A stretch of DNA of 64,000 nucleotides from positions 544,001 to 608,000 of the forward strand of contig OY759316.1 of the NCBI GenBank assembly GCA_963662275.1, read 5' to 3'. A program made the position numbers and the translations under genes. Source of the stretch: Candidatus Cloacimonadales bacterium. GTDB taxonomy: Bacteria > Cloacimonadota > Cloacimonadia > Cloacimonadales > DAONDQ01. Positions 10,901 through 56,986 of this stretch are shown here, piece by piece (the stretch's first letter is position 1; each line of letters opens with the position of its first letter). The notes below the pieces were generated by a model, which saw nothing but the letters and a program-made list of their open reading frames with translations, was not told the DNA's origin and did not search any database.

Positions 10901-10928
10901 AGGACATCCTAACGGGTGTCCTTTTTTT
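10901..10928 (+). terminator. Intrinsic terminator after ackA
   Basis: AGGACATCC-taac-GGGTGTCCT then T-run. Confidence 0.85.
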
Positions 10929-36692: not shown

Positions 36693-37694
36693 ATGCCAGG
36701 ATGTAAAATATCAATGATTGAGACATATTTTCCCAAAAAAACTGTCACGAATGAAGATTTGTCACAAGAGTTTCCCGATTGGTCACCTCAGAAAATTGAA
36801 AAAAAAATTGGTATCGCAGAAAGACATGTCACTATTGAAAACGAAACTGCTGTGGATCTTGCTCGAGAAGCCTGTCAAAAGTTATTTCTGATAGAAGATA
36901 AATCAAAAATAGATTTCTTGCTTCTTTGCACTCAAAGTCCTGATTATCTGCTTCCTACTTCAGCATGCATTCTTCAGGATCAATTGGGACTTCCAACGAC
37001 AATAGGTGCATTGGATTTTAATCTTGGCTGTTCAGGGTTTGTTTATGGTTTAGCTCTTGCCAAGGGCTTGATCAGCGCTAATATTGCAAAAAATGTTCTT
37101 CTCATAACATCAGAAACTTATTCAAAACACATACATCCTCAAGATAGAGGAAATCGAAGCATCTTCGGAGATGGGGCAGCAGCATGCATTGTATTTGATT
37201 CTGATGATAACGGGATTTTTGATTTTGAACTAGGTACTGATGGGAGAGGATGGGAAAATTTAATTATCCGCAATAAAGGAATGAGAAATTCTTCCATAAA
37301 TAACTCAGAAGATTGGATTGATGAATCGGGATCAATTCGAAATGACAATAATCTGTATATGAATGGTCCAGAAATCTTCAATTTTACTATTGAAGCTGTT
37401 CCTAAATTAATTGAAGAAGTATTGAAAAAGAATAAAGTTGCACTTGCTGATGTGGATTATTTTATTTTCCATCAGGCAAATCAATACATGCTGAATTATC
37501 TCAGAGATATCATTGGAATACCTGAGAGTAAGTTTTATTTAAATATGATGAATACAGGTAACACTGTTTCAGCAACGATTCCTATTGCCTTGAAGGACGC
37601 ATTGGAAAAGATGTTAATAAAAAAAGGTGATAGGGTACTTTTAGCTGGTTTCGGTGTTGGTTATTCGTATGGTTCAACCATAATTACAATATAG
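36693..37694 (+). CDS. Ketoacyl-ACP synthase III family protein (glycan-cluster type)
   Basis: TQSPDYLLP, LGCSGF (Cys), FGDGAAA, FHQAN (His), GNTVS (Asn), GFGVG. Confidence 0.88.
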   Translation: MPGCKISMIETYFPKKTVTNEDLSQEFPDWSPQKIEKKIGIAERHVTIENETAVDLAREACQKLFLIEDKSKIDFLLLCTQSPDYLLPTSACILQDQLGLPTTIGALDFNLGCSGFVYGLALAKGLISANIAKNVLLITSETYSKHIHPQDRGNRSIFGDGAAACIVFDSDDNGIFDFELGTDGRGWENLIIRNKGMRNSSINNSEDWIDESGSIRNDNNLYMNGPEIFNFTIEAVPKLIEEVLKKNKVALADVDYFIFHQANQYMLNYLRDIIGIPESKFYLNMMNTGNTVSATIPIALKDALEKMLIKKGDRVLLAGFGVGYSYGSTIITI

Positions 37695-37708
37695 ATTGAG
37701 GAGATAAA

Positions 37709-37939
37709 ATGGTTATCAATCAGTTTCTTAATGATCTTAAAGATCTACTTGAATTGTCTGAAGATATCGATCTGAATACAGATCTCAAATCACTTGATGA
37801 ATTTGACTCTATGGCTATTATGTCTTTAGTTGCATTCTTACATAAAAAATTTGGAAAGCAATTCAATGCAAGGCAACTGAATAATATTACTACTGTACAG
37901 TCTTTAGTTGACCTAATAGGAAATGATAGTTTTAATTAG
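37709..37939 (+). CDS. Acyl carrier protein
   Basis: 76 aa acidic, FDSMAIM phosphopantetheine site, TTVQSL; GAGGAG RBS. Confidence 0.88.
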   Translation: MVINQFLNDLKDLLELSEDIDLNTDLKSLDEFDSMAIMSLVAFLHKKFGKQFNARQLNNITTVQSLVDLIGNDSFN

Positions 37940-38022
37940 ATAAAAGAGAATATGCTAAAATGATTCGAGTTACCATAGGAAAAAATGGAAAATTGTTTGT
38001 GTGCGGATAAAAGGCTGAATTT

Positions 38023-39426
38023 ATGTTTCTAAGTTGGCCATATTTCCCAATATTAATTTTTTCGGCAATTATTTACTGGGCACTTCCGAAACAAAGAAAT
38101 CGAAATCTATTTCTGACAGCAGTGAGTTTAGCATTCATCTATTGGTTTGATAAAAATGCTGTTATTGTCGTCATCGGTTTAACTCTATTTACCTTTTTAA
38201 TTGCTTGGTGGATCGAAAAAAGCCAAGGTGGAAAACTTGCACATACGATAGGTATTGTAGGTTTACTACTTGTTCTTGCCATATTTAAGTATTTGGGATT
38301 TTTATCGGGGACTTTAAACAGTCTATTTAGCTTTGTACATCAACTTCCAGTTTTTCAATTTGAGAAATTATTTCTTCCGTTGGGTATTTCATACATTACA
38401 TTTAAATACATAAGTTATTTAACAGATATACAATGGGGGCTTTTCAAAAAAGGTAACTTTCTTGATTTACTTTGCTATGGAAGTTTGTTTACAATTTTCG
38501 CGGCAGGTCCTATTGAACGTTTTGATCGCATGAAACCTCAATTCGAATCTGATAAAATTGTCTTTAAATTGAATTACGTTGAAGTTGCTTTTGAAAGGAT
38601 TATCTTTGGTCTTTTTCAGAAACAAATATTAGCTGATCGTTTGGCTGAGTATACATTGCAATTCTGGTATTATCCAACAACGTATACTCTAGTATCTCAG
38701 ATAATAGTGCTATTTGGATATGCACTCCAAATGTATTTAGATTTTTCCGGTTATAGTAGTATAGCAATCGGTTCATCTAGATTGTTTGGATTGACAATTA
38801 TGGAGAACTTCAATAATCCTTATTTGGCATCTAATATTAGTCAATTCTGGAGGCGATGGCACATTTCCTTGTCAGAGTGGATTCGTGATTATATATTCTT
38901 CCCTCTGTATCAATACAAATCATATAGTTTTTGGCTTTTCGTATGTGTTCCGATTATTGCAATGGCTTTATGTGGGCTTTGGCATGGAGCATCCTGGAAT
39001 TATGTACTTTGGGGTATTTGGCATGGAGTAGGAATAGCTATTTATCATTATTGGAATAAGTACAAGAAGAAACATAAAAAGTTTGAATTAGCTCTAAATA
39101 CTCCAATAATTTCCCGAACGGCTATTCTTGTTACATTTTTCTATGTTTCGTTGGGGGGGATTATTTTTCGTACAACAAATCTCGGTCATTTAACAAATTT
39201 ATTTTTTCACCATGGCGAGCAAGAATTAAGTATTCGAGGCAAAGCACTTATATTAGTTTTGCTGCTATGCATATTCCTTGTACCCAATTATCATAAGATA
39301 TTACAGAAAATCTCGATGAAAAGATATTACCCATATGTGAAATGGTTTGTGTTATTTGTTATCATTGAATCTATCTTCTTTTTATCACCAGCCACTTCTG
39401 CGCTTTTTATTTATGCAGGATTCTGA
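38023..39426 (+). CDS. MBOAT acyltransferase (AlgI/DltB family) with fused C-terminal FIYAGF motif
   Basis: PLGISYITF, AGPIER, DFSGYS, ENFNNPY, FWRRWHISLS, GLWHGA; ends ALFIYAGF. Confidence 0.92.
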   Translation: MFLSWPYFPILIFSAIIYWALPKQRNRNLFLTAVSLAFIYWFDKNAVIVVIGLTLFTFLIAWWIEKSQGGKLAHTIGIVGLLLVLAIFKYLGFLSGTLNSLFSFVHQLPVFQFEKLFLPLGISYITFKYISYLTDIQWGLFKKGNFLDLLCYGSLFTIFAAGPIERFDRMKPQFESDKIVFKLNYVEVAFERIIFGLFQKQILADRLAEYTLQFWYYPTTYTLVSQIIVLFGYALQMYLDFSGYSSIAIGSSRLFGLTIMENFNNPYLASNISQFWRRWHISLSEWIRDYIFFPLYQYKSYSFWLFVCVPIIAMALCGLWHGASWNYVLWGIWHGVGIAIYHYWNKYKKKHKKFELALNTPIISRTAILVTFFYVSLGGIIFRTTNLGHLTNLFFHHGEQELSIRGKALILVLLLCIFLVPNYHKILQKISMKRYYPYVKWFVLFVIIESIFFLSPATSALFIYAGF

Positions 39427-40346
39427 TGAAAAAGCTCATTATTTACATTCTTTTCATCCCTTGCATTATCACCATGAATAATCTAGTTAATCTGACTATC
39501 AGTAATAACTTCGCTGAGGATGTATTTACGAATGAATATCCATATCAATGGGTGGAAAAATTACATGTAAAACCTAAGATAGTTCTTGTGGGTAGCTGTA
39601 CAACTCAAACTGGCTATTCTGCAAAAGAGCTACAGAAATTATTAGGATTACGAGATGGAGAAGTGATTAATCTTGCCACCGCTCCTAGTAGTCCAGAAAT
39701 TACGTACTTTATTGTGAAGAAGTATATTGATAAATTTGATGATAACGCATTAATATTGTATGGTTTTGACCCAGAAATTCTTAGTGAAGTTTATTATCAT
39801 TATTTGAATATTTTATTATCGCACTGGTCATTAAGGGAAAGAATTAGTTATATCTCATCACATAACACTGATTTTCCAACAACTATGAATATTGTTAATG
39901 GGGGGAATGTTTTCATGAATATCGAGGACATTTTTGTTACTAACAGTAAGGATACCAAAGGGGATGATTATGGAAGTACTAAGTATTTAAGAGGATTAGA
40001 TCCAACTATACCTGTCGAGCAATCTTTTTGTCTTTCTACATTTCATATTTCTCAGCGTTTTTTACAGAATTTCGCAAAACTAGATAATCTTGTATATCAA
40101 AAACACAGAAAAATGATCGTCTATTATCCAGCGTATTCAAATCGCTTTATGAAGCAATATATTGAATTAAATTATCATAACAATATTCAGACTCAATTAC
40201 ATAAAGTCATAAAGTATAGCCGGTTTGAAGACCAGTTAACAACACACCCAGATTCATGCTATCTTGATTTGATTCACATTTCACTAAAAGGAAAGAAAAC
40301 AAATCTACCAAGAATCCTCAGGTTAATACAGAAATCAGGAAACTGA
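39426..40346 (+). CDS. Membrane-anchored SGNH-like (DltD/AlgJ-position) protein
   Basis: N-terminal TM, VLVGSCTT block I, VINLA, C-terminal DLIH; TGATG coupling to MBOAT. Confidence 0.6.
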   Translation: MKKLIIYILFIPCIITMNNLVNLTISNNFAEDVFTNEYPYQWVEKLHVKPKIVLVGSCTTQTGYSAKELQKLLGLRDGEVINLATAPSSPEITYFIVKKYIDKFDDNALILYGFDPEILSEVYYHYLNILLSHWSLRERISYISSHNTDFPTTMNIVNGGNVFMNIEDIFVTNSKDTKGDDYGSTKYLRGLDPTIPVEQSFCLSTFHISQRFLQNFAKLDNLVYQKHRKMIVYYPAYSNRFMKQYIELNYHNNIQTQLHKVIKYSRFEDQLTTHPDSCYLDLIHISLKGKKTNLPRILRLIQKSGN

Positions 40347-40439
40347 TATTAATATGAAAAAGAGCATTCCAATTGAATTCATGATCCTAATAACAATCAA
40401 GATGAATCAGTGGTTAGCAGTGGCTCGGAAATTTAAGTT

Positions 40440-41840
40440 ATGTTTTTAAGTTGGTTCTATTTTCCTTTTTTAGGGATAGTAGCTTTCATTTATTGGATGC
40501 TTCCTAAACAAAAAATACGGAATATTTTTCTATCATTCGTTAGTTTTGTATTCATTTATTGGTTTGATAAAAAATCCATTGTGGTCATTCTTGGTCTCAC
40601 GATATTCACTTTTGCGATAGCTAGTTGGATTGAAAAAAGGAATGGAGGAAAACTTGCTCATACTATCGGAGTAATTGGATTAATTATCATACTTGCCATA
40701 TTTAAATACTTGGGATTTTTATCGGGAATTCTAAATAGCTTAGTGAGCTTTGTGCATCAACTTCCGAGTTTTCAAATAGAAAAATTATTTCTTCCTCTAG
40801 GTATTTCATATATTATATTTAAGTATATTAGTTATATCACTGATATTTATTGGGGGACTTTAAAGAAAGGAAGTTTTGTTGATCTGTTATGCTACGGGAG
40901 TTTATTTACAATTTTAGAAGCTGGACCTATTGAACGTTTTGAAAGGATGCAGCCTCAACTAGAATCAAGTAAGATCATATTTGATGTTAAACATGTTGAA
41001 GTAGCAATAGAAAGGATTATCTTCGGACTTTTATTAAAACAAGTAATCGCAAACCGATTAGCTGAATACACGATCACATTCTGGCAAGATCCATCTAAAT
41101 ACTCCTTAGTAGCCCAGGTCACAGCACTATTTGGATATTCCCTTCAGATTTATTTCGATTTTGCCGGTTACAGTAGTATTGCTATCGGATCATCTAGATT
41201 ACTCGGTTTGAAGATAATGGAGAATTTTGATAATCCGTATCTTTCATCTAATATCAGCCAATTTTGGCGTCGTTGGCACATTTCATTGTCCGATTGGATA
41301 CGAGATTATATCTATTTCCCACTGTCCCAAAATCAATCCAATAGATTCTGGATTCTGATTTGTGTACCGATAATCTCAATGTCTTTGTGTGGATTGTGGC
41401 ATGGTGCATCATGGAATTTTGTGATATGGGGAGCATGGCACGGTGTTGGGATTGTTATTTATCAAAATTGGAATAAGTATAAGAGACAGCACAAAAAATC
41501 AGTATTAGCTCTGAATACTCCTTTAATTTCTTTTGTTGCTATGATAATTACATTTATCTATGTTTCATTGGGATGGATGTTATTTCTCTCTACAGATATC
41601 TCCCATGTGACAGATATTCTGATCAAACATGGCGGGAAAGCATTAAGTATACGCTCTACAGTACTCATTTTAGTACTGTTGCTATGCATTTTTCTCGTAC
41701 CCAATTATAATAACATATTGAAGAAATTATCAGAGAAAAGATACTACCAATTTTTGAAATGGCTTACTTTGTTTATTATCTTGGAATGCATTTTAAATTT
41801 ATCATCAGCCAAGACGCTTTTTATTTATGCAGGTTTCTGA
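40440..41840 (+). CDS. MBOAT acyltransferase, tandem paralog, fused FIYAGF motif
   Basis: Same motifs as 38023 gene; ends TLFIYAGF. Confidence 0.92.
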   Translation: MFLSWFYFPFLGIVAFIYWMLPKQKIRNIFLSFVSFVFIYWFDKKSIVVILGLTIFTFAIASWIEKRNGGKLAHTIGVIGLIIILAIFKYLGFLSGILNSLVSFVHQLPSFQIEKLFLPLGISYIIFKYISYITDIYWGTLKKGSFVDLLCYGSLFTILEAGPIERFERMQPQLESSKIIFDVKHVEVAIERIIFGLLLKQVIANRLAEYTITFWQDPSKYSLVAQVTALFGYSLQIYFDFAGYSSIAIGSSRLLGLKIMENFDNPYLSSNISQFWRRWHISLSDWIRDYIYFPLSQNQSNRFWILICVPIISMSLCGLWHGASWNFVIWGAWHGVGIVIYQNWNKYKRQHKKSVLALNTPLISFVAMIITFIYVSLGWMLFLSTDISHVTDILIKHGGKALSIRSTVLILVLLLCIFLVPNYNNILKKLSEKRYYQFLKWLTLFIILECILNLSSAKTLFIYAGF

Positions 41841-42778
41841 TGAAAAAGTTAATTTTTTTAGTTATCTTCATACCCTGTACTATTATCCTGAATAATGTAA
41901 TTAATCTGATGATTAGTAGTAACTTTGCTGACTATGTGTATACAAAAGAATTCCCCTATCAATGGGTTACTAAACTATCTGTAAGTCCCAAAATAATCTT
42001 GGTAGGTAGTTGTACGACGAGAAGAGCTTACTCGTCAAAAGCGCTACAGGAGGCATTAGGATTGCAGGATGGGGAAGTAATAAATCTTGCGACAACTCCA
42101 AATAATCCAGAGATCACATATTTTCTGGTGAACAAGTACATTAATAGCTTTGCTAGTAATGCTCTCATTTTGTATGGTATCGACCCCTTTATCCTTAGTG
42201 AGATTTATTATAAGAATTTTAACATTCTATTGTCTCAGTGGAGTTTGAAAGAACGATTCGATTATGTTGCTGCAAATAATAGTGATTTCCCCACTACAAT
42301 GAATATCGTAGATGGAGGTAACGTTTTCATGAATATAAAGGAAATTGTCATGAATAACAACACTGATACAAAGCTAAATGATTTCGGCAGCACTATTCCA
42401 AGTAAGGTTGCAGAATCTGATCAACCTCCACTCAATCAATGGTTTTATCTTTCTACTTATAATATATCTCAGCGTTTTATGGAGAATGTCTCAAAACTCG
42501 ATAAATTAGTATATCAAAAACACCGAAAAATGATTGTCTATTATCCCGTTTATCCGGATTGTTATATGAAGCAATATGAAAAGATCAATTGTCATAACAG
42601 CATTCAGGCTCAATTACATAAAGCTATTCAACTAAATCGTTTCGATGACCAATTATCAACTTATCCTGATTCCTGCTACGTTGATCTTGTACATATTTCT
42701 CAAAAAGCGAGAAATGATTTTTTAGCAAGTATAATTGATGTCATTAAGAGATCCGGATTCCAAGTTACAACAAAATAG
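41840..42778 (+). CDS. Membrane-anchored SGNH-like protein, tandem paralog
   Basis: Start set at TGATG overlap (MKKLIF); ILVGSCTT, GEVINLAT, DFPTTMNIV, DLVH shared with 39426 gene. Confidence 0.6.
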   Translation: MKKLIFLVIFIPCTIILNNVINLMISSNFADYVYTKEFPYQWVTKLSVSPKIILVGSCTTRRAYSSKALQEALGLQDGEVINLATTPNNPEITYFLVNKYINSFASNALILYGIDPFILSEIYYKNFNILLSQWSLKERFDYVAANNSDFPTTMNIVDGGNVFMNIKEIVMNNNTDTKLNDFGSTIPSKVAESDQPPLNQWFYLSTYNISQRFMENVSKLDKLVYQKHRKMIVYYPVYPDCYMKQYEKINCHNSIQAQLHKAIQLNRFDDQLSTYPDSCYVDLVHISQKARNDFLASIIDVIKRSGFQVTTK

Positions 42779-43918: not shown

Positions 43919-45067
43919 TTACCTCAACCACCAAGTTCCAACGGTGACGAAAACAAAAGTAATAACAACACTCACATACTGAAACCATACTGCTTCAGCA
44001 GCTTTTGAGAGAGAACGATGTTGACGTTTGAATTGGCTCCATAATCTCCAGATAGCAATTCCTACTCCATGCCAGATACCCCATATTACAAAATGCCAAG
44101 CTGCACCATGCCACAGACCGCATATTCCCATTGCTATGATGGGTGTACATACAAACATCCAGAATTTGCTTGTGCTTTTTTGTGATAGAGGAACAAAAAT
44201 ATAATCTCTTATCCAATCAGACAAGGATATGTGCCAACGTCTCCAGAACTGACTGATATTCGGAGCAAAAAAAGGGTTATCGAAATTTTCCATGATTGTC
44301 AAACCATACAATTTGGATGAACCAATGGCAATATCGCTATAACCTGAAAAATCAAAATAGACTTGCAGGGAAAAACCAAACAAAGCTGCTATTTGAATTA
44401 AAGATGAATAATGTTCCGGTCCTCTGAAAACCGGATTGATAAGATATCCTAACCAATCTGCCAATACATATTTCTTGATTAAACCATAAACGATTCTTTC
44501 AAAACCTACACTGATAAAAGCGGTTTGAAATTGAATACGTCGACTTTCTAACTGTGGTTTTAGGCGAACGAATTGCTCAATTGGACCAGCAATAAAAATT
44601 GTATAAAGAGAACCATAGCAAAGAAAATCCAGAAATTTACCCTTTTGAATGATCTCCCATTTTATATCAGTTAAATAGCTAATATATTTGAAAACAATAT
44701 AGGATATACCCAAAGGTAGAAACAGCTTATCTATTTGAAATATGGGTAGGATATGAATAAAACTCATCAAACTATTTATGATACCGCTTAGGAATCCAAG
44801 ATACTTAAAAATAAGAAGAACAAGTATCAGACCGATAATACCCATTGTGTGGACGTAATGTTTACGGATTTTTTCCATCAAGATAGCTATCCCATAGGTA
44901 TATAAGGTTAATCCGATGACTACCAATACCGCATTAGGATCAAGGTATCCGATAAAAATGAAGCTAATCAATGTTAAGAATGTATTACGCCACTTTTGAT
45001 TGGGAATTAACCAATAAAGTAAAACTGTAATGATTACAAATGGGAAAAAGAGAACCTTACCCAACAT
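43919..45067 (-). CDS. Short MBOAT acyltransferase (DltB-like, no C-terminal Tyr motif)
   Basis: PLGISY, AGPIE, DFSGYSDIAIG, FWRRWHISLS, GLWHGA; ends VGTWWLR; ATG after GGAG RBS. Confidence 0.9.
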   Translation of the reverse strand: MLGKVLFFPFVIITVLLYWLIPNQKWRNTFLTLISFIFIGYLDPNAVLVVIGLTLYTYGIAILMEKIRKHYVHTMGIIGLILVLLIFKYLGFLSGIINSLMSFIHILPIFQIDKLFLPLGISYIVFKYISYLTDIKWEIIQKGKFLDFLCYGSLYTIFIAGPIEQFVRLKPQLESRRIQFQTAFISVGFERIVYGLIKKYVLADWLGYLINPVFRGPEHYSSLIQIAALFGFSLQVYFDFSGYSDIAIGSSKLYGLTIMENFDNPFFAPNISQFWRRWHISLSDWIRDYIFVPLSQKSTSKFWMFVCTPIIAMGICGLWHGAAWHFVIWGIWHGVGIAIWRLWSQFKRQHRSLSKAAEAVWFQYVSVVITFVFVTVGTWWLR

Positions 45068-45114: not shown

Positions 45115-45273
45115 TTAGAAATTTGCATAGAAAAACGGATTGCTTGTTGTTACAATTATATGGTTAAAAGCAATAGAAGCAATAGCCAAAATAAAGAGAA
45201 AGCTTAAAATGAAATACTTGAGTAATGAAGCCAATAGTGGCTTTGTCTCGCTTAACTTTGAAAATAATTTCAT
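45115..45273 (-). CDS. DltX-like small membrane acyl-shuttle protein (not in ORF track)
   Basis: 52 aa MKLFSKLSETKPLLASLLKYFILSFLFILAIASIAFNHIIVTTSNPFFYANF; one TM, terminal FFYANF, purine-rich RBS, lies between ACP and MBOAT. Confidence 0.85.
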   Translation of the reverse strand: MKLFSKLSETKPLLASLLKYFILSFLFILAIASIAFNHIIVTTSNPFFYANF

Positions 45274-45334
45274 CTTCAACCTTCCCTTTTGTTAGCATAT
45301 GGGATACAATTGCATATATCATAAAATGAATAGA

Positions 45335-45583
45335 TTAATCCTCAAATTTATCCATCCCGATTAGATTCATTAAATCACCAATCGTACCAACTTCATTCAG
45401 TTTTTTTGCTATAATATTGATTCCAAATCTTTTACTGATAAAAGATACGAGTGACACAACCGATAAGGAATCATAACCTTCGATGCTTGCTAGTTTGGTA
45501 TTAACAGTTATTTTGGGCGCGTCAGGATCTGAAGAATCAGCAAATTCATTTAACAACTCTTCGATAAATCGGTCTTTTTTCAT
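45335..45583 (-). CDS. Acyl carrier protein
   Basis: YDSLSVV Ppant site, TIGDL; ATG after AAGGAG. Confidence 0.85.
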   Translation of the reverse strand: MKKDRFIEELLNEFADSSDPDAPKITVNTKLASIEGYDSLSVVSLVSFISKRFGINIIAKKLNEVGTIGDLMNLIGMDKFED

Positions 45584-45597
45584 GTCTTCTCCTTTAG

Positions 45598-46902
45598 TCA
45601 ATTCTGAAAATTAATCTGTCTGAATTTTCTTTGCATTTTACTCATAAATGGTTGAATGCTTGAGGCAGCCAATACGATGAGGAAGCAATCAAGCACAATT
45701 CTATAACGCTCAAGGGTATAAGGGATAAATAGCACATGTATTATGGTATGCCAAATGAAGATACACAGCAGAAAAACAAATATCTGATTATCTTTTGTTT
45801 TCAGTTTTAACATTCCATAGAAAAAAAAAGGTATGAGCATACCATACATCAATCCAGAAACAAGATTGTGTTTTAGAGACCATTTACCATCCCAGAGATA
45901 ACCATCTAATTTATACCCTTCGTGGAAATCTACTGGAGCCCATAACTCTAGAAACCGCGACCATAACTTCTCACCAGTTGAGAATTTATGGGGCAATAAA
46001 CCTCTTCGAATGGCTGCCGCGAATTCAGGTCGAATTTCTCCATCAATCAGATGTGCAGTATAACCATTTCTAACGGAGTCAATTTGTGTTGGTGTTAATT
46101 CCCATGCCCAATCATTATTCGCATAATACTCCTGGTATGGGTATCCGAAAAGTTTGTCAGTAATGGGTGCTGTTCTGACTGAAAGAATCACAATTTTATG
46201 GTAAACATGATAATTACGTATTAACCAGGGAACCATACACATGAATACAATTAAGGAAAAGATCAAAGCAGATTGTAATTTTTTGATAATGCTATCTGTA
46301 TTAAGCATAAATAATGCTACAAATAGGAGAGGAATATAGGCAAAAAATCTCTCATCAATATGGATCAAGAGAGAATAAGAGAGTGAACACAGAAGTAGGG
46401 GAATCCATTTCCTAGAGACTTTTCTAAAACGTAAAACACAAAATATGGTCGATAAAAATAAAAAATGAATCCAAATCTCTTTTCCTGAAGTTACGATGAA
46501 TCGAAGATAGAAATAATAAACAGAACTCCATATTAAAGCCATAAGTCCAATGGTTTCATTAAACAACTCTTTCCCTAAGTAATAGATCAGGATACATAAT
46601 CCCGTACTTAATAGTGTATTAAATAAGAAAATAACCAACCAGGATTTTCCCAATAGCGTAAAAAGAATTGCTAAAATCCAACCCATCCCAGGTCCAACTA
46701 CTTTTGCCACTGAATTCATCGATGTAATATCCGGTAAGAAAAATCCCTGTGTCATAACACTTTCAGCAAGACTGTAGTACGCTAAATCATCAGCGAAACC
46801 TTCATAGACTTTTGTATAGTAACCATATAATGCCAAGATCAAACGTATTATGAAAGCAACTGATATGATATAAAATAAAAGGCTAGTATTAGTAATTTTC
46901 AT
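45598..46902 (-). CDS. GT-C fold glycosyltransferase (ArnT/PMT-like)
   Basis: IRL...DDLAYYSLA first loop, multiple TMs, PWLIRNY, RYRI. Confidence 0.78.
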   Translation of the reverse strand: MKITNTSLLFYIISVAFIIRLILALYGYYTKVYEGFADDLAYYSLAESVMTQGFFLPDITSMNSVAKVVGPGMGWILAILFTLLGKSWLVIFLFNTLLSTGLCILIYYLGKELFNETIGLMALIWSSVYYFYLRFIVTSGKEIWIHFLFLSTIFCVLRFRKVSRKWIPLLLCSLSYSLLIHIDERFFAYIPLLFVALFMLNTDSIIKKLQSALIFSLIVFMCMVPWLIRNYHVYHKIVILSVRTAPITDKLFGYPYQEYYANNDWAWELTPTQIDSVRNGYTAHLIDGEIRPEFAAAIRRGLLPHKFSTGEKLWSRFLELWAPVDFHEGYKLDGYLWDGKWSLKHNLVSGLMYGMLIPFFFYGMLKLKTKDNQIFVFLLCIFIWHTIIHVLFIPYTLERYRIVLDCFLIVLAASSIQPFMSKMQRKFRQINFQN

Positions 46903-46911
46903 TCAATTTTC

Positions 46912-47295
46912 TCAGCTTCGTGTTACAAGGAAAACGCCAATTACTATGACAAAAACACCAAAAATTCGATAAGTATTCACATTTTCATGAAAAAGTAAAG
47001 CACCAAATAGAAGAACCAGAACATATGAAAGACTCATTATTGGAGCAGCTTTACTGATATCAACAGATGTCAGGATATATAAATATATCGACATCGATAA
47101 AACATAGCAGAATACTCCTGTAATCAATTGCCAGTTCGTTAAAATATTTTTAAATACAAAATCTAAAGATATTAGTTTCAAACTTAAGTCGAGTCTCTGG
47201 GAGGCATATTTCATTAATACTTGTCCAAGTACTCCAACAGCTAAACAAATAATGAAAATCAATACCATCTGCAACCTAAGCTTATCTTCGTTCAT
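46912..47295 (-). CDS. EamA/ArnE-F-like small flippase
   Basis: 4 TMs, GQVLMK, DISKAAPIMSLSYV, LFHE. Confidence 0.8.
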   Translation of the reverse strand: MNEDKLRLQMVLIFIICLAVGVLGQVLMKYASQRLDLSLKLISLDFVFKNILTNWQLITGVFCYVLSMSIYLYILTSVDISKAAPIMSLSYVLVLLFGALLFHENVNTYRIFGVFVIVIGVFLVTRS

Positions 47296-47644
47296 TCTTT
47301 TTTTTCTGTTGTCTTATCATCCCGTCATTAACAGCTAAGAAGGATATTACTTCTTGCAACCTATCGGAAACTTCACAGAGCTTGATCGACAGATGTAAGA
47401 TATAAATAAGGAGGAAGAATATGACACCAACAACGACGATTCCTGAAGCATCTGCAGATCCAATTAAAACAGAAACAGCCTTTATCTGACTTTCAAAGAT
47501 GACCAGGCAGAACATAGCTAAACTGATAATGAGCCAAAGCACGGAATAAAATGGTTTGATAGAGCGTTTTCTAACTAGTAAGATAAAAACAAATAGGAAA
47601 AATAACGCTGATATCAGGGCTAAAATTCTAAGCGTTAATGTCAT
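47282..47644 (-). CDS. DUF2304 family membrane protein
   Basis: VRKRSIKPFYSVLWL, 3 TMs, C-terminal coiled segment; adjacent to DPM-like GT2. Confidence 0.75.
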   Translation of the reverse strand: MTLTLRILALISALFFLFVFILLVRKRSIKPFYSVLWLIISLAMFCLVIFESQIKAVSVLIGSADASGIVVVGVIFFLLIYILHLSIKLCEVSDRLQEVISFLAVNDGMIRQQKKKNERR

Positions 47645-47645
47645 A

Positions 47646-48362
47646 TTATGAACCTCTGATTTGATCTTTTTGTAATCTTGTACCGATTATCGATATAATT
47701 CCGTAAATGATGAATTTAACGCTATTCATGAAATTGAAAACAGATTTCCCCGAAGTACGTGGATTCATCACGACCGGTACTTCCTTCATCCTCAATTTGG
47801 CATATGCTGCAATCATCAGCATCTGTGCACAATGCTCATATTCATGTTTATGCTGATTTGCAAAAAAGTGAATTGCTTTTTTATTATATGCTCTGAATCC
47901 TGAAGTAATATCTGTGATGCGTTGTCCTGTAAACCAAGTAACAATATCAGAGAATATGGTAATTCCAAGTCTTCGAAATTTGTATGATTGAAATCCTTCA
48001 TTTGTAATGAATCTTGATCCAATCGCAATATCAGCGTTTCCATCCAAGACAGGTTGTAGTAGGTCATGCAGACAAGAAGCATTATGCTGATTATCTCCAT
48101 CAAGATTGCAGTAAATGTCATAATCATTGAGATAAGCGTAAAGAAAACTGGTTTTAATTACACCGGAAACCCCACCCGTATTAACTGCGTGACGCAAATA
48201 CTCTTCTCCACTTTTTTTTATTAGCTCATAACTTCTATCAACGGACGAGTTATCTATTATCAACAGATCTGCGTCTATTTTGGCATGATTACGAAAGTCA
48301 GCAATTGTATCTAGGATTGCTCCTTCCTCATTGTAGCATGAAATAACGGTTAAAATTTTCAC
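47646..48362 (-). CDS. GT2 polyprenol-phosphate sugar synthase (DPM1/ArnC-like)
   Basis: YNEE, IDNSSVD, LDGDNQH, IGSRF, DITSGFRAY, EVPVVMNPRTSGKS. Confidence 0.85.
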   Translation of the reverse strand: MKILTVISCYNEEGAILDTIADFRNHAKIDADLLIIDNSSVDRSYELIKKSGEEYLRHAVNTGGVSGVIKTSFLYAYLNDYDIYCNLDGDNQHNASCLHDLLQPVLDGNADIAIGSRFITNEGFQSYKFRRLGITIFSDIVTWFTGQRITDITSGFRAYNKKAIHFFANQHKHEYEHCAQMLMIAAYAKLRMKEVPVVMNPRTSGKSVFNFMNSVKFIIYGIISIIGTRLQKDQIRGS

Positions 48363-48400
48363 TATTTGCTCCAGTGCAAGTTAAACGAAGTAATTCTCTA

Positions 48401-48961
48401 TTAGTCTTGAATTAAGGGATGATTCTGGTTGAAATTAAACAATGACATGAGAAGTACATCATGATAGCAGGAATTATGATAATGCTGTGCTTTTAATGTT
48501 CCTTCCAGGATAAATCCATTCTTTTCAAAAACTCTTCTCGAAGCAGTGTTATCAGAAGTAATAAAGCATGTAAGCTTATTCAGATTTAAATTCCCAAATG
48601 AAAAATCAATCAGCAATTGCAATATCTCTGTTCCGATTCCTTTGCCATGAGTTTCATGTTCTCCAATGACTATCAAAGGATTTGCATTCCGGTTCACATA
48701 ATTGATATTCGTTAGTCCCGTGAAACCCAAAAGACGAGATGTTTCATTATCGATCACAGAAAAATAGATATTTTTATTACTTGTAGAACTAACTACTGAA
48801 TTCATCCAGTCTTCTTCCTGCTGTATTGTAACAGGATATGGATGCATCATGGCTGAGTACTTATAATTTGCATTATTATGCCATTCATTAATTAAATCCA
48901 GATCTTCGCTCTTCATCTGCCTAAAAGAAATATGCTCTCCATTCAGTAGATATTTGCTCAC
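48401..48961 (-). CDS. GNAT N-acyltransferase (PseH/RimJ-like)
   Basis: IGEHETHGKGIGTE, LNLNKL, DNTASRRVFEKNGFILEG. Confidence 0.85.
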   Translation of the reverse strand: MSKYLLNGEHISFRQMKSEDLDLINEWHNNANYKYSAMMHPYPVTIQQEEDWMNSVVSSTSNKNIYFSVIDNETSRLLGFTGLTNINYVNRNANPLIVIGEHETHGKGIGTEILQLLIDFSFGNLNLNKLTCFITSDNTASRRVFEKNGFILEGTLKAQHYHNSCYHDVLLMSLFNFNQNHPLIQD

Positions 48962-48984
48962 TAATAGGCTCCTTTTAAAAAAAA

Positions 48985-50172
48985 CTAATCACTCAAAATA
49001 TACTGTGATATATAATGGGTGATGCTATTTGATTGTATTTCCAATTTCTCACGCTTATCGCTACTGATTATAAAATATCCATATCTGTCAAGACTATTCT
49101 TCACTATCCAAGTCATGCTGTTGACCATTAAATCGCACGTAAATTCTTCAATACAAGGAAACTTCTGCTTCAACTCTTGTTCATTTGGAAGATGTTTTAT
49201 CATCTGGTTTGTGGGTAAATTAAGATAAGTTATCATCGAGGCTTTATTCTCAATAGAATATTGGGGTTGATCACCAATAGCTATTAAGATGACTTGCTTT
49301 TCCATATTCACGGTTGTTGATAACGGAACGAGACGAGAAGTAATATAATCTCCTCCCAGCCTTGGACCAATCTCAATAATCGTAATTTTACCATCATGTA
49401 TTTTCAATTCAGCATGAATTGCAGTATTATTTAAACCAGCCTGTGTTAAAACTTTCTGCAACAGAACGTGGAGTGAGAGTTTGAAGTCCATTGTGTACTT
49501 TGATGGTTGAATATGTCCTAATTCGACATTATACGGAGGGGGAGTAACGATTTTATCGGTTATCTGTATCAGTGTTAGCACATTCTTGTATATAAATGCT
49601 TCTACACTGATTTCATCTCCTTCCAGATATCCTTCCATAATAAACTCATCAATAGTAGAATATCGCAAGGTTTCTTCAACAGATTTCAAAAGAAAATCAT
49701 ATGAATCACATTTTATAACCCCTCGACTTCCGGAATTTCGAAGTGGTTTAATAATGACTGGGAATGCTATCTCATCTTCCCTGGGAATAGTATTTATATG
49801 ATAAACTCCTCCCTGGGCATGCCGAAATGAATTAGCTTTTAAAAATTCTTTGAATTTACCTTTATTAAGAACTAATTCAACGCTTTCATAAGAAGGAAAT
49901 ACTAAATTCATTGCTTTTGCAATACGCGCCATCATTGAGATCGGATGATCTGTCGCAGCCGTTACAACACCCGAAATATTATGTTTTTGTGCAAGTTGAA
50001 GCGTATATTCATAGTCATTTCCAGCTACCACGTAGAAATAGTCAGCAATGGTATTGGCTTCTGCATTAGGATTCGGATCAATGACAACCGATTCAAAACC
50101 CATCTCTTTTGCCGTTTGTATGATCGAAATTTGGAGACCACCTCCTCCAAAAATCATGATGGCTTTATTCAC
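48985..50172 (-). CDS. ATP-grasp ligase (L-amino-acid ligase-like)
   Basis: GGGGLQ, PVIIKP..SGSRGV, GDEISVE, ITDK, HAELK, IEIGPRLGGD. Confidence 0.82.
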   Translation of the reverse strand: MNKAIMIFGGGGLQISIIQTAKEMGFESVVIDPNPNAEANTIADYFYVVAGNDYEYTLQLAQKHNISGVVTAATDHPISMMARIAKAMNLVFPSYESVELVLNKGKFKEFLKANSFRHAQGGVYHINTIPREDEIAFPVIIKPLRNSGSRGVIKCDSYDFLLKSVEETLRYSTIDEFIMEGYLEGDEISVEAFIYKNVLTLIQITDKIVTPPPYNVELGHIQPSKYTMDFKLSLHVLLQKVLTQAGLNNTAIHAELKIHDGKITIIEIGPRLGGDYITSRLVPLSTTVNMEKQVILIAIGDQPQYSIENKASMITYLNLPTNQMIKHLPNEQELKQKFPCIEEFTCDLMVNSMTWIVKNSLDRYGYFIISSDKREKLEIQSNSITHYISQYILSD

Positions 50173-51305
50173 ATCTGTTCCAAAATTAATGCAAGTTCTG
50201 AGACTATTAGATCAATCTGTTGTATCGTTAATCCTGAATAGATTGGAAGCGTAATTTCGTGGTCAGTGGCAAAATCGGTTTCAGGTAAATCGGCATGATA
50301 GTTTTTATATATTGAGAATCTATGTGCCGCTGGATAATGTATGCTTGTTTGAATTCCTATTGTATGTAACTTGTCACGCACTCTATCACGATACTCATAA
50401 TCACCATTATTTAAGATAATGGGGAATATGTAATTAGAACAGAATTCCTGATGATCTTTAAAGGGAATAGTAATATTAGGAATTGTACTCAGCTTTTCCA
50501 GATAATACTTACGGAGTATCATTCTTTTTTGTAGATCAACGTATAATTTGCGAAGTTGAACGATGGCAATGGATGCTCGGATATCATCCATCCGATAATT
50601 ATAGCCTAAAGCTACAACATCATAGGAAGTCGAATGTCCGGAAGCTCGTTCATATGACATGGAAGTCATTCCATGAGAGCGGAGCAATTTGATTTTGGCA
50701 GCATACTCATCGTTATTTGTAATGATCATACCGCCTTCACCTGTAGAAATATTCTTATTGGAAAAAAAACTGAAACAACCTAAATCTCCAATTGTTCCTA
50801 ATTTTTGATGATGATATTCGGAAAGAGGTCCATGACAGGCATCTTCAATTACCTTTAAATTATGTTTTTCAGCAATTGCCATAATTTCATCCATCTTGCA
50901 GGGGAAACCAGCAAAATGCATGACAGCAATGGCTTTTGTACGAGGAGTAATCTTCTTTTCGATATCAACGGGATCTATCGTTAAGTCATCTTTCGAAATA
51001 ATATCACAAAAAACGGGAGTTGCCCTGACATAAAGTATAGAATTCACGGTAGCTACAAATGTCATGGCAGGAACAAGAACCTCATCCCCGTCTCCAATGC
51101 CTGCAACTTCAAATGCCAAATGCAATGCCACCGTACAGTTTGTTAAGGCAATTGCATGCTTGACTCCAAGCATGGATGCAAACATGTTTTCCAGTTCAAT
51201 ATTCTTTGGACCTGTCGAAATCCACTTGGAATGTATTGTCTCTAAGGCAGCTTTTTCTTCTTCATGGTCAAAATTCAAATCAAAAAGTGGTATATTATAA
51301 CTCAT
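50169..51305 (-). CDS. DegT/DnrJ/EryC1/StrS sugar aminotransferase
   Basis: NCTVALHLA, TFVAT, IEDACH, FSFFSNKNISTGEGG, GYNYRM. Confidence 0.92.
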   Translation of the reverse strand: MSYNIPLFDLNFDHEEEKAALETIHSKWISTGPKNIELENMFASMLGVKHAIALTNCTVALHLAFEVAGIGDGDEVLVPAMTFVATVNSILYVRATPVFCDIISKDDLTIDPVDIEKKITPRTKAIAVMHFAGFPCKMDEIMAIAEKHNLKVIEDACHGPLSEYHHQKLGTIGDLGCFSFFSNKNISTGEGGMIITNNDEYAAKIKLLRSHGMTSMSYERASGHSTSYDVVALGYNYRMDDIRASIAIVQLRKLYVDLQKRMILRKYYLEKLSTIPNITIPFKDHQEFCSNYIFPIILNNGDYEYRDRVRDKLHTIGIQTSIHYPAAHRFSIYKNYHADLPETDFATDHEITLPIYSGLTIQQIDLIVSELALILEQM

Positions 51306-51320
51306 ACTTAATCCTGGGTT

Positions 51321-52292
51321 CTAAACATTATAAATGTCAGTTTTATAAAGAGAGAGGTTCTCGTTTAAGAATTCAATCGTTTCACGAATACCGGAATCAA
51401 GATTATATGAAGGTTTCCAATCCGTATTCTCCATAATTTTCTGATTTGCACAATATAAACGTTCAACCTCGCTTTTACCAGGTCTTATCCGTTCATCATC
51501 CGTCTTTATCTCTATAGGAATTTGTAATAAATTACTTATCTTTTTTACCAAATCACCAATGGAGATTTCTTCACACATTCCAATATTTGTCACTTCTCCA
51601 AATAAACGATCTGATTGAAGAATAGAGATAAAGCCTCGAACTGTATCTTTTACAAATGTCAAGTCTCTTGTGGGATGCAAATTACCTAGATTGAGTTCTG
51701 TCTTACCGCTGAGTATTTGAGTAATGACAGTAGGAATTATCGCACGTGCTGATTGCCTCGGTCCATAAGTATTAAATGGTCTGACTATTTTTACCGGCAA
51801 GCCAAATGAACGGTAATAACTGATTGCCATTTGATCTGCTGCAATTTTAGATGCAGAATAGGGTGATTGACCAACAAGCGGGTGATTCTCATCAATGGGA
51901 ACATATTGAGCGGTTCCATATGTTTCACTTGTCGAAGTGACAAGAATGTTTTCCAAACTTCGTACTCTTGCGGTTTGAAGAACATTGTATGTACCTTCAA
52001 TATTGGTACGAATATAAGCTAAGGGCGAAACATAAGAATACGGAATACCGATGAGAGCAGCTAAATGAAGAACAGTGGAACATCCATCCATCGCATCATA
52101 TACAGAATCATAGTCGCGTATATCTCCGGTTACGATTTCCATATCGTTCTTGTACTTTGAATTTTCCAACCAACCCCAAAAATTCTTGGAGTTGTAATGG
52201 ACAAATGCTTTTACTTCATAACCCAACTCAACACAATATTCTGCCAAATGTGAACCAATAAAACCGCCTGCTCCAGTGATCAGTAATTTCAT
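51321..52292 (-). CDS. NDP-sugar 4,6-dehydratase, LegB-like
   Basis: ITGAGGFIGSHL, HLAALIGIPYSY, TSTSETYGTA, QSPYSASK, RPFNTYGPRQSARA. Confidence 0.85.
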   Translation of the reverse strand: MKLLITGAGGFIGSHLAEYCVELGYEVKAFVHYNSKNFWGWLENSKYKNDMEIVTGDIRDYDSVYDAMDGCSTVLHLAALIGIPYSYVSPLAYIRTNIEGTYNVLQTARVRSLENILVTSTSETYGTAQYVPIDENHPLVGQSPYSASKIAADQMAISYYRSFGLPVKIVRPFNTYGPRQSARAIIPTVITQILSGKTELNLGNLHPTRDLTFVKDTVRGFISILQSDRLFGEVTNIGMCEEISIGDLVKKISNLLQIPIEIKTDDERIRPGKSEVERLYCANQKIMENTDWKPSYNLDSGIRETIEFLNENLSLYKTDIYNV

Positions 52293-52418
52293 CTTATTTC
52301 CTTATCTACTTTTTTTATTTGTGTTGCATGATTAACCTTCAAATCACGAAACTCTATCCTGATAAGATTTGTAAAAAATCCTGATATTTGGGTTTATTTC
52401 TCAGTAATTTATTGGTTA

Positions 52419-53117
52419 TCAATTCCCTGAAAAATGCTCCTGATAGACTTCTTGTGCTTTTTCGTAATCGTTAATACGACCAATATCGAGCCAATATTCT
52501 TTCAAATCAAATTTCGAAACAGGAATTTTATCATGCAGAAGGTTCTTAATCAGGCTATCCATACCAAAATAGGTATCGTCTGGTATATAGTCAAATATCT
52601 GGGGAGTCATCACATAGATGCCAGCAAGAAGATAGAGGACGATATCTGGCTTTTCCTGGATATCTGTAACATAGTCTCCATCAAAAAAGATATTTCCAAA
52701 GGCAAATGGTGTTATATCTTTCTTGACTGTGATCGTTAAAACTGTTTGTTTTTGTTTAGCAAAATCGTACAAATTTGAGAAATTGAGCAAAGTTAAAATA
52801 TCACCGTTCATAACGAGGAATGGCTCCGTAAGTTCCTTCTTCAAAAGCGTCAGGGGACCAGCAGTACCGAGAGGTTTTTCTTCTCGGCTGATACTAAGTT
52901 TCACACCATAGCGTGTACCATCACCGAAGAAATTTTCTATATAATTTGATTTATAATTCGTTGCTAAGAATATTTCATCAAAGCCGTGCTTTTTGAGATG
53001 CTCGATTTGAATCTCCATGACAGCTTTTTCCCCAATTGGCAATAAGGGTTTGGGAATCACTTCCGTAAATGGTTTAAGTCTCGTGCCTAAACCTCCAGCT
53101 AGAATCACTGCTTTCAT
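52419..53117 (-). CDS. Sugar-1-phosphate nucleotidyltransferase
   Basis: ILAGGLGTRLKP...PKPL, PLGTAG, MNGDIL, EKP, WLDIG. Confidence 0.9.
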   Translation of the reverse strand: MKAVILAGGLGTRLKPFTEVIPKPLLPIGEKAVMEIQIEHLKKHGFDEIFLATNYKSNYIENFFGDGTRYGVKLSISREEKPLGTAGPLTLLKKELTEPFLVMNGDILTLLNFSNLYDFAKQKQTVLTITVKKDITPFAFGNIFFDGDYVTDIQEKPDIVLYLLAGIYVMTPQIFDYIPDDTYFGMDSLIKNLLHDKIPVSKFDLKEYWLDIGRINDYEKAQEVYQEHFSGN

Positions 53118-53138
53118 GAATTCACCTTTCTCGATATT

Positions 53139-54080
53139 TTAATACGATGCTTTTATGGATTCGACTGTCTTAATTAATCCTGATTTAAAATTAACCAATG
53201 GTTTGAATTGCAGTCCTTCACCAGCTTTTTTTATACTGGCTAAGGAATGCTTTACATCTCCTGCTCGTTCCGGAGATAGAATCGGTTCTATCTTTGTACC
53301 TAATATCTCATTAAGAGATTCCACTAACTCCAGTAGAGTAAATCTTTCGCCACAAGCTATATTGAAAACATTACCGGCAACTCCGGGAGCTGTACATGCA
53401 ATAATATTCGCTGCCACATTATTATCCACGTAAGTAAAATCCCTGGATTGCGTCCCATCTCCATAGATGACAGGTCTGATATTCTTCATCATACATGTGA
53501 TGAATTTGGGTATGACTGCACTATATTGCGATGTGGGATCCTGGTTTGGACCAAATACGTTGAAATAACGAAGGCATACTGTTTCCAAATTATACAGGCT
53601 TGTATATATCTGGCAATAACGTTCTGCAGCATACTTCGTCAAAGCATATGGTGAAAGTGGTGCAACAGGCATATCCTCTTGTTTTGGCATAATTTCACTA
53701 TTTCCATAAACAGAGGACGATGAAGCATAAATTACCCTTTTCACACCAAACTCACGAGAAGCTTCCAGCACATTCAAGGTTCCTAGAATATTCACATCGT
53801 TCGTTGTTATGGGATCATTAATACTACGGGGAACAGAAGGTAGTGCACCTTGGTGAAGAACATAATCCACCCCTTTCACAGCACTGCGAACAATATGGAA
53901 ACTGCGTAAATCACCTTCGAACATTTCAAAATTGGGATTTGTCATAAATGGCAGAATATTACTTCGTTTTCCAGTGGCAAAGTTATCCAGAACCCGAATC
54001 TTGTATCCTTTATCTAAAAGCGTTTTTACAATATTCGAACCAATAAAACCGGCACCACCTGTAACCAAAAAAGTATTCAT
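53139..54080 (-). CDS. UDP-GlcNAc(A) 4-epimerase, WbpP/TviC-like
   Basis: TGGAGFIGSN, HQGALPSVPRS, ASSSSVYG, SPYALTK, LRYFNVFGPNQDP, QSRDFTY. Confidence 0.88.
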   Translation of the reverse strand: MNTFLVTGGAGFIGSNIVKTLLDKGYKIRVLDNFATGKRSNILPFMTNPNFEMFEGDLRSFHIVRSAVKGVDYVLHQGALPSVPRSINDPITTNDVNILGTLNVLEASREFGVKRVIYASSSSVYGNSEIMPKQEDMPVAPLSPYALTKYAAERYCQIYTSLYNLETVCLRYFNVFGPNQDPTSQYSAVIPKFITCMMKNIRPVIYGDGTQSRDFTYVDNNVAANIIACTAPGVAGNVFNIACGERFTLLELVESLNEILGTKIEPILSPERAGDVKHSLASIKKAGEGLQFKPLVNFKSGLIKTVESIKASY

Positions 54081-56325: not shown

Positions 56326-56986
56326 AAGTTCCTCCAAATACTGTTTCAGTTCTAATTTTATATACATTTTTTATGCCAATTTCGTGCTAAAGATTTCAAA
56401 TATCTTCACAATCCAGTTTTTATTGCTTTCTAAACTGAAATCGTCACCGAATTTTTGCTAAAGGGGTTATCATGCTATCATCTTGAGATTGAAATGCCTT
56501 GCCGGCACTTCCGTATGCAGGCATAAAGTTTTTCCTTTCCCTGTAAAAAGACCTGAGGTGTTAATTTTTTTATGCTAGCATACCGCAGGTATTTCTTCAA
56601 TTGCAGCAGTTGTTCTAGCAGTTCAGATATGTAGAATACACCATTACTATCGGGGATACAATATAACAATCCCGTACTTGATGTAATATGGCAGATACTG
56701 CCGGATAATTCTCATTTGTATGAAAGCATCGTTACCTTCCATTTATTATAAGTGCGATATGCTATTGCACAGCTTTCTCTACTATTCGTTAACGCACGCT
56801 GGGTAAAGATAAATAACACCTTTTTGTCTATATTGAAGAGTGTGTGTCGTGAGGTTTCTCATCGCATGGTGTACCTTTTGCCATCTCACCGTGTACATTT
56901 TACACCTTACTGAATAAGGCATTCTACCTAAATTATCTAAACTTTCTGCAACACTTTCTTAATTTAGCTCCTATTTCAGGAAGTAT

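Follow-up and report, generated by a model that had tools for sequence, protein, structure and literature searches.

What does a gene for a 52-aa peptide do between the genes of a carrier protein and a short, DltB-like MBOAT in a bacterium of the LPS-type diderm kind? The question is raised by a 64,000-nt stretch of the genome of a Candidatus Cloacimonadales bacterium (contig OY759316.1, positions 544,001 to 608,000), here called the window. According to PMC12148441, D-alanine passes from DltC to DltB, from there to the tyrosine of the FXYXXF motif of the microprotein DltX, and finally to the DltD serine, while PatA auto-acetylates the tyrosine of its own fused motif, which then serves PatB. 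Acyl-tyrosine shuttles have been elucidated in DltX of Firmicutes and in the fused tail of PatA; in PMC12148441 the non-Dlt MBOAT/SGNH pathways are described as working without a carrier protein and without a DltX-like microprotein. We consider it highly probable that the peptide encoded in the window is a real single-pass, N-in/C-out microprotein that supplies in trans the F-x-Y-x-x-F acyl shuttle that is fused in the long MBOATs.

The microprotein gene lies on the minus strand at 45115..45273, with its ATG at 45273 and its TAA at 45115-45117, and encodes a basic N-terminus, one TM helix and a tail that ends NPFFYANF-stop; Tyr49 is the presumed acyl acceptor. A Shine-Dalgarno-like GGGAAGG (45286-45280, minus strand) is found 6 nt 5' of the ATG, and GGAG-type sites also precede many of the orthologues. 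The mechanical start of the frame is an in-frame TTG at 45279, two codons 5' of the ATG; since the orthologues all align from the ATG, at about 52 aa, we take the ATG as the start. There is a single hydrophobic stretch, for which the top 19-residue window has a mean Kyte-Doolittle value of 2.38, and the tail that follows is short and uncharged or acidic. The ribosome site, the lone helix and the NPFFYANF ending are thus present as the initial annotation had read them, and so is the gene order, which on the minus strand is carrier protein, microprotein, short MBOAT and SGNH-fold protein. How is the peptide oriented? Over 30 family members the N side has a mean net charge of +3.0 and the C side one of -0.8, the N side being the more positive in 30/30, so that the positive-inside rule predicts an N-in, C-out topology, which puts the tail and its tyrosine in the periplasm.

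A frame this short, with no family match and with its window copy absent from the protein collection, might have arisen by chance, or might be what remains of the C-terminus of a broken long MBOAT, and would in either case be without function. How often, then, does the motif arise by chance? Of the 68,742 stop-to-stop frames (30 aa minimum) in the whole 4.38-Mb genome, 19 have F.Y..F as their ending, and these comprise five long MBOATs, two microproteins beside the two short MBOATs and 12 unrelated frames, the last number giving the chance rate. From this count it follows that all seven MBOATs of the organism's own genome have either a fused motif or an adjacent small gene. Selection has left its mark on the reading frame as well. 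Differences at codon positions 1, 2 and 3, taken over 55 pairs of 11 ungapped orthologues, number 1176, 818 and 1874, and in a close orthologue pair 36 of 47 differences fall at position 3. The invariant Ser44 is specified by AGC, AGT, TCG and TCC, which is to say by both serine codon families, and the other invariant tail residues likewise use varied synonymous codons. These codon-position statistics indicate selection on the protein. Moreover, the frame is conserved across at least three phyla with this excess at position 3, it comes with a start and a ribosome site of its own, its place is upstream of the MBOAT in the window but varies at other loci, and a second intact copy stands beside the genome's second short MBOAT. 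We therefore give the idea of a chance or relict frame only the slightest chance of being correct.

Is the small gene a regular companion of short MBOATs? The initial annotation had proposed conservation beside orthologous short MBOATs as the point on which the idea should stand or fall, and on that point the idea stands. When the organism's genome was searched together with 40 relatives from its order, short-MBOAT matches occurred in 24 of the 41. A small ORF with the ending F.Y..F lies no more than about 2.5 kb from each of the ten short MBOATs examined (375-400 aa, a count that leaves out one 273-aa frame in genome G013); eight of these MBOATs are accompanied by the 52-aa ESNPFFYA[NA]F type and two by a 39-aa FRYEGF type, and in one genome two tandem short MBOATs share a single 52-aa copy. 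Conversely, the long MBOATs examined end in F.Y..F at their own C-termini in 20/20 cases. A separate scan for [ET]SNPFFYA, in which each species was represented by a single genome, hit 16 loci, of which four were places already reached in the MBOAT search. A short MBOAT orthologue (50-65% identity) lies near the small gene at 13 of the 16, and at the remaining three the contig ends beside the small gene. By label, nine of these loci belong to Cloacimonadota, three to Ignavibacteria, three to Bacteroidota and one to a MAG labelled Gammaproteobacteria, a distribution that is a lower bound since a single peptide pattern was scanned.

Within the cassette the microprotein is always present and its place varies: its gene may precede that of the carrier protein, stand between carrier protein and MBOAT as in the window, or follow either the MBOAT or the SGNH gene. 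This variability speaks for a gene in its own right and against the frameshifted end of an MBOAT. The second cassette in the same genome illustrates the point about order. Its microprotein gene, at G000:C1:2581113-2581271 (L021:5114-5272, plus strand), is followed by genes for a carrier protein, a short MBOAT, an SGNH-like protein, a long MBOAT ending FIYAKF and a 358-aa protein, so that, in a departure from the window order, the microprotein precedes the carrier protein. One apparent fusion of an SGNH gene to the microprotein, at an Ignavibacteria locus (L043), proved to be an artefact: two N bases (4930-4950) just 5' of the microprotein start make the two genes read as one frame of 373/383 aa. 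Two of the relatives (G021 and G039; L023:2665-6781 and L024) also carry a separate Dlt-like cassette with an AMP-forming ligase, in the order carrier protein (weak DltC matches), 361-aa protein (weak GDSL/NonGDSL matches), 395-aa MBOAT, 39-aa FRYEGF microprotein and AMP-ligase.

The family itself is compact. Over its 30 aligned members F47, F48, Y49, A50 and F52 are invariant and the length stays near 52 aa. A profile search of 1.84 billion representatives returned 59 clusters at E<=1e-3; 58 of these are proteins of 35-79 aa in which the match runs to the C-terminus, the other being a 1399-aa repetitive protein, and no fused form of the family appeared among the 1.84 billion representatives at that threshold. 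A word-indexed protein search gave 18 homologues, all without Pfam domains and unnamed or called hypothetical protein; the paralogue from the second cassette is among them and the window copy is not. The description of the gene as unannotated is thus correct for the window copy and too broad for the family, whose members have been called, without a name, in other records. In sum, the 52-aa gene is real and conserved, is under protein-level selection, is obligately linked to short MBOATs and has a predicted N-in/C-out topology, and its family occurs in Cloacimonadota, Ignavibacteria and Bacteroidota.

What of the partners? The neighbouring genes were confirmed as the initial annotation had named them, the carrier protein by Pfam (PP-binding), the MBOAT by Pfam (MBOAT) and the NCBIfam DltB model TIGR04091, and the SGNH protein by Foldseek. 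The acyl/peptidyl carrier protein (45335-45583, minus strand, 82 aa from its ATG) matches Pfam PP-binding at E 8e-6 and is the presumed acyl donor to the MBOAT; against NCBIfam it matched generic ACP models only, with no DltC model at E<=1. The short MBOAT (43919-45067 from its ATG, with a mechanical start at TTG 45082; minus strand, 382/387 aa; Pfam MBOAT E 7e-22) has neither the C-terminal two-helix extension nor the motif. It scores 195.2 bits (E 2e-57) with TIGR04091, short of the equivalog cut-off of 375, and we class it as DltB-like rather than as a DltB equivalog. Among solved structures its profile matched only DltB (6bug and 8jem, E about 2e-44). Two of its histidines, H279 in WHISLS and H320 in LWHGA, do not vary among 15 orthologues and correspond in the alignment to DltB RWHMSLS and GFWHG; His336 and His289 of DltB are named as key residues in PMC11035591.

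The third partner (42895-43881/43914, minus strand, 328/339 aa) has no Pfam match, and its assignment to a DltD/PatB role comes from its predicted fold and its invariant GxS and GH. It and 16 orthologues have an N-terminal helix, by which the protein would be anchored in the membrane, and share invariant G101, S103 and H309, with N136 and G138 nearly invariant; the G-x-S and G-H residues are presumably catalytic. Its AF2 model has a pLDDT of 85.3 and the best Foldseek hits, among 80 matches at E<=1e-3, are TesA and GDSL esterases, with TesA 4jgg at E 5.7e-6 and a target TM-score of 0.73.

Does the microprotein act as a shuttle, or simply as a part of the complex? It might be a conserved membrane subunit of an MBOAT-SGNH complex, serving assembly, stability or gating, with a tyrosine that is never covalently acylated. 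Architecture and co-occurrence, which are all that is shown, would suit such a subunit, and a regulatory role of the DltD and DltX helices on DltB is raised in PMC11035591. Conservation, however, is strongest in the extracytoplasmic tail, not in the helix, with SNPFFYA-F invariant or nearly so while its synonymous codons vary. The tail is, moreover, of the hexapeptide type for which acyl-tyrosine is reported in DltX and shown in PatA (PMC12148441), and among the MBOATs examined the peptide accompanies every one that has no fused motif and none that has one. We consider a purely structural subunit unlikely. A complex prediction of the MBOAT with the microprotein scored 0.47, versus 0.02 for the best of three controls, with contact agreement of at least 64% and partner pLDDT of at least 69 in the runs. 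The mark applied was passed by 116 of 157 solved complexes and by 2 of 215 mismatched pairs, and it was passed with a score of <=0.60 by only 18 of the 157 solved complexes, plus both of the passing mismatches; these calibration counts are only rough because own alignments were used for the prediction. Its output lists no contacts, so that the support, which is weak, goes to the pairing of MBOAT and microprotein and not to a proximity of Tyr49 and the histidines; likeness to DltB-DltX may contribute to it.

If the microprotein is a shuttle, as we prefer to think, is it simply DltX? The likeness is considerable. DltX too has about 50 aa, a single TM helix, an N-in/C-out topology and a C-terminal F-x-Y-x-x-F with an invariant tyrosine, and its gene stands among those of a carrier protein, a tail-less DltB-type MBOAT and a membrane-anchored SGNH protein. 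Unlike DltX, the window family has a distinct tail consensus, ESNPFFYANF, and does not match Pfam DltX (PF12459). None of nine microproteins matched that model at E<=10, and a six-frame search of the organism's own genome touched neither microprotein locus and gave only two unrelated sub-threshold places; as a control, the six-frame search was over cut-off in 2 of 14 control genomes. One of 29 remote family representatives did match, over its full length and below threshold (E 0.059, 13.3 bits, cut-off 25). NCBIfam gave no match to the microproteins. The PF12459 model is evidently narrow, since the 39-aa type, which resides in the complete carrier protein/361-aa/MBOAT/peptide/AMP-ligase cassette, is also unmatched by it. 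The term DltX-like, which the initial annotation had used, accordingly holds for architecture, motif and context and fails for the PF12459 family; by those same three features the microprotein is a DltX analogue, with family membership not demonstrated, given the unmatched PF12459 and the lack of a DltA over cut-off.

Dlt-like (dra) loci exist in some Gram-negative bacteria. One might ask whether the cassette is a canonical dlt operon after all, with an ordinary DltX, that D-alanylates a teichoic-acid-like polymer. The best family and the solved relatives of the MBOAT are DltB, yet the 195 bits fall below 375, the carrier protein matches no DltC model, and the genome has no DltA over cut-off (the best TIGR01734 score is 115 bits versus 559.85) and the 64,000-nt window no AMP-binding gene. 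A canonical operon is also hinted at by the Dlt-like setting of the 39-aa class in relatives and by the orthologous locus of G040, the closest case, where a DltA-like adenylation enzyme (226 bits versus a cut-off of 476) stands beside the MBOAT. One TagF-type (Glyphos_transf) gene, about 590 kb away, might likewise suggest a teichoic-acid-like polymer; the same Glyphos_transf model, however, matches a Bacteroides control genome too. Where the hosts of Dlt are concerned, the window's host differs in being an LPS diderm of the FCB group, as LpxC and the T9SS-type proteins indicate, and where dltXABCD is concerned the window differs in having no DltA or DltC equivalog and in having an Arn-like amino-sugar pathway, not teichoic-acid genes, as its neighbours. 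We find an ordinary DltX in a canonical operon quite improbable. The interpretation given in the initial annotation, a free acyl shuttle in a diderm with no teichoic-acid genes in view, is supported.

The separate shuttle has fused counterparts close by. On the plus strand, a paralogous unit (36693..42778) contains in order a FabH-like KAS III (36693-37694), a second carrier protein of 76 aa that falls below usual ORF cut-offs (37709-37939), a long DltB-like MBOAT (38023-39426), a 306-aa partner (39426-40346), a second long DltB-like MBOAT (40440-41840) and a 312-aa partner (41840-42778). Both long MBOATs end LFIYAGF-stop, which bears out the earlier remark that the microprotein motif mirrors a FIYAGF-stop on its two long neighbours. 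Long MBOATs such as PatA, with PatB, and AlgI likewise have the same type of hexapeptide at the extreme C-terminus after a TM helix, with hand-over to an SGNH protein; the cassette of the microprotein differs from the PatA/AlgI type in having the motif on a separate polypeptide and in having a carrier protein in the system. The two long MBOATs of the window share 57-59% identity with the short one. In a maximum-likelihood tree of 34 MBOATs, for which all assembled rows were used and the root is a midpoint root only, these two and 15 short MBOATs form one 17-row clade (support 99/94), outside which fall 15 further long MBOATs and the second short class. The place of the window's long MBOATs inside the clade has support of 86/74, which is not strong. 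A single origin of the short MBOAT form may be envisaged, as it is compatible with the tree's starred branches.

Are carrier proteins common beside long MBOATs? By tblastn none was found in the flanking 1.5 kb of 14 further long MBOATs from the relatives. With a carrier protein beside the fused-tail MBOATs of the window and none near the 14 others, a system of carrier and fused tail adjoins one of carrier and separate shuttle. Whether microprotein and fused tails are of one descent is a related issue: when the microprotein family was compared by hhalign with the C-terminal 60 aa of 17 long MBOATs, the match was weak (probability 28%, E 6e-4), and by this weak profile-profile comparison common descent is not established. 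BLASTP showed no similarity between the 306-aa partner of the long MBOATs and the 339-aa SGNH protein; the fold prediction of the 306-aa partner, from a 3-row alignment, had a pLDDT of 46.7 and is unusable.

What would the cassette acylate? The host, which the initial annotation had taken to be a diderm, is indeed of the LPS type: its genome has an LpxC above cut-off, and the window encodes Por_Secre_tail, C25 and PAD proteins. Directly upstream of the carrier protein gene, on the same minus strand, is a GT-C PMT_2 protein, an ArnT-like periplasmic glycosyltransferase (45598..46902; Pfam PMT_2 E 2e-9), and beyond it stretch Arn-like amino-sugar pathway genes (46912..54080, minus strand). In order these code for an ArnF/ArnE-like flippase subunit, a DUF2304 protein, a GT2 polyprenyl-phosphate glycosyltransferase, a PseH-like GNAT, an ATP-grasp ligase, a PseC/LegC-like aminotransferase, a LegB-type 4,6-dehydratase (477 bits versus a cut-off of 475), a nucleotidyltransferase and an epimerase. 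No terminator-like site was found on the minus strand between 42500 and 54500, and a sigma-70 promoter scan was uninformative, with 45 sites, fewer than the 57.2 in shuffles. The upstream genes read as an Arn-like route, in which an amino sugar would be built on polyprenyl phosphate and attached in the periplasm; the cassette would then acylate either this sugar or the molecule to which it is attached.

Elsewhere in the window there are a 1294-aa gingipain-type C25 peptidase with FlgD_ig (5273-9157, minus strand) and a Porphyromonas-type peptidylarginine deiminase with FlgD_ig and Por_Secre_tail (54241-56367, minus strand), both predicted to be T9SS cargo in this Cloacimonadota-like genome. 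Two large ORFs in the polysaccharide region, of 626 aa (10927-12807, minus strand) and 496 aa (29394-30884, minus strand), have no Pfam match at E<=1e-3.

How might the carrier protein be loaded? The ATP-grasp ligase of the sugar cluster (48985-50172, minus strand) has matches to D-Ala-D-Ala ligase, PylC and carbamoyl-phosphate-synthase-like proteins, and it is a candidate that may amidate the sugar or else load an amino acid on the carrier. There is a parallel in butirosin biosynthesis, where BtrJ is the enzyme for loading of an amino acid on a carrier protein. At three loci a glycine C-acetyltransferase (Kbl) is encoded between microprotein and carrier protein (L030:5209-6456, L031:2173-3411 and L032:2345-3589; 571 bits versus a cut-off of 460 at L030). 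Kbl may be a source of a thioester for the carrier or simply a bystander. When the ATP-grasp, DltA-like and Kbl candidates were compared over the loci, none was conserved.

These elements suggest a relay. The adjacent carrier protein would first be loaded with an acyl or aminoacyl group; the short MBOAT, with its WHISLS and LWHGA histidines, would pass that group across the membrane to Tyr49 of the microprotein at the periplasmic face; the membrane-anchored SGNH-fold partner would take it onto its GxS serine and would then esterify a periplasmic glycan. The acyl-tyrosine chemistry at Tyr49 is inferred from the analogous cases of DltX and PatA, and the group would travel, on the same precedent, from carrier protein to MBOAT, Tyr49, SGNH serine and glycan. 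The acceptor is most plausibly an amino-sugar-bearing glycan, presumably made by the same-strand Arn-like pathway upstream. Have microproteins of this kind been described outside the Dlt pathway? A full-text literature search, the scope of which ended short of the Schultz et al. 2023 survey and supplements, brought up no such description, and in the full texts searched the term DltX-like is used only in the statement, in PMC12148441, that other pathways lack one.

What, then, does the locus mean for the evolution of envelope acylation? We offer tentatively, and with less than even confidence, a broader reading in two parts. The first is that FCB diderms (Cloacimonadota, Ignavibacteria and Bacteroidota) have a carrier-fed, split-shuttle MBOAT-SGNH relay by which Arn-like amino sugars that decorate the envelope are esterified in the periplasm, possibly with an aminoacyl group. 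The second is that the shuttle is modular, moving between a separate gene and a fused tail within one MBOAT subfamily. On this tentative reading, because the carrier-associated fused paralogues group with the split clade (99/94), the published division into systems with carrier and microprotein and systems with acyl-CoA and fused tail would break down; the scheme in PMC12148441 does not foresee a carrier-associated MBOAT with a fused tail.

Several consequences may be drawn. The locus and its relatives reveal a microprotein family that has no name and escapes the DltX HMM, and that by all sequence-level criteria would do the same job in LPS-bearing bacteria. A practical rule for annotation is that an MBOAT without a tail should have a small F-x-Y-x-x-F gene nearby. 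The window itself offers a natural split and fused pair for mechanistic comparison. If the broader reading is true, the relay would be a Gram-negative counterpart of teichoic-acid D-alanylation. The locus also points to an undescribed envelope acylation in uncultured phyla of anaerobic digesters.
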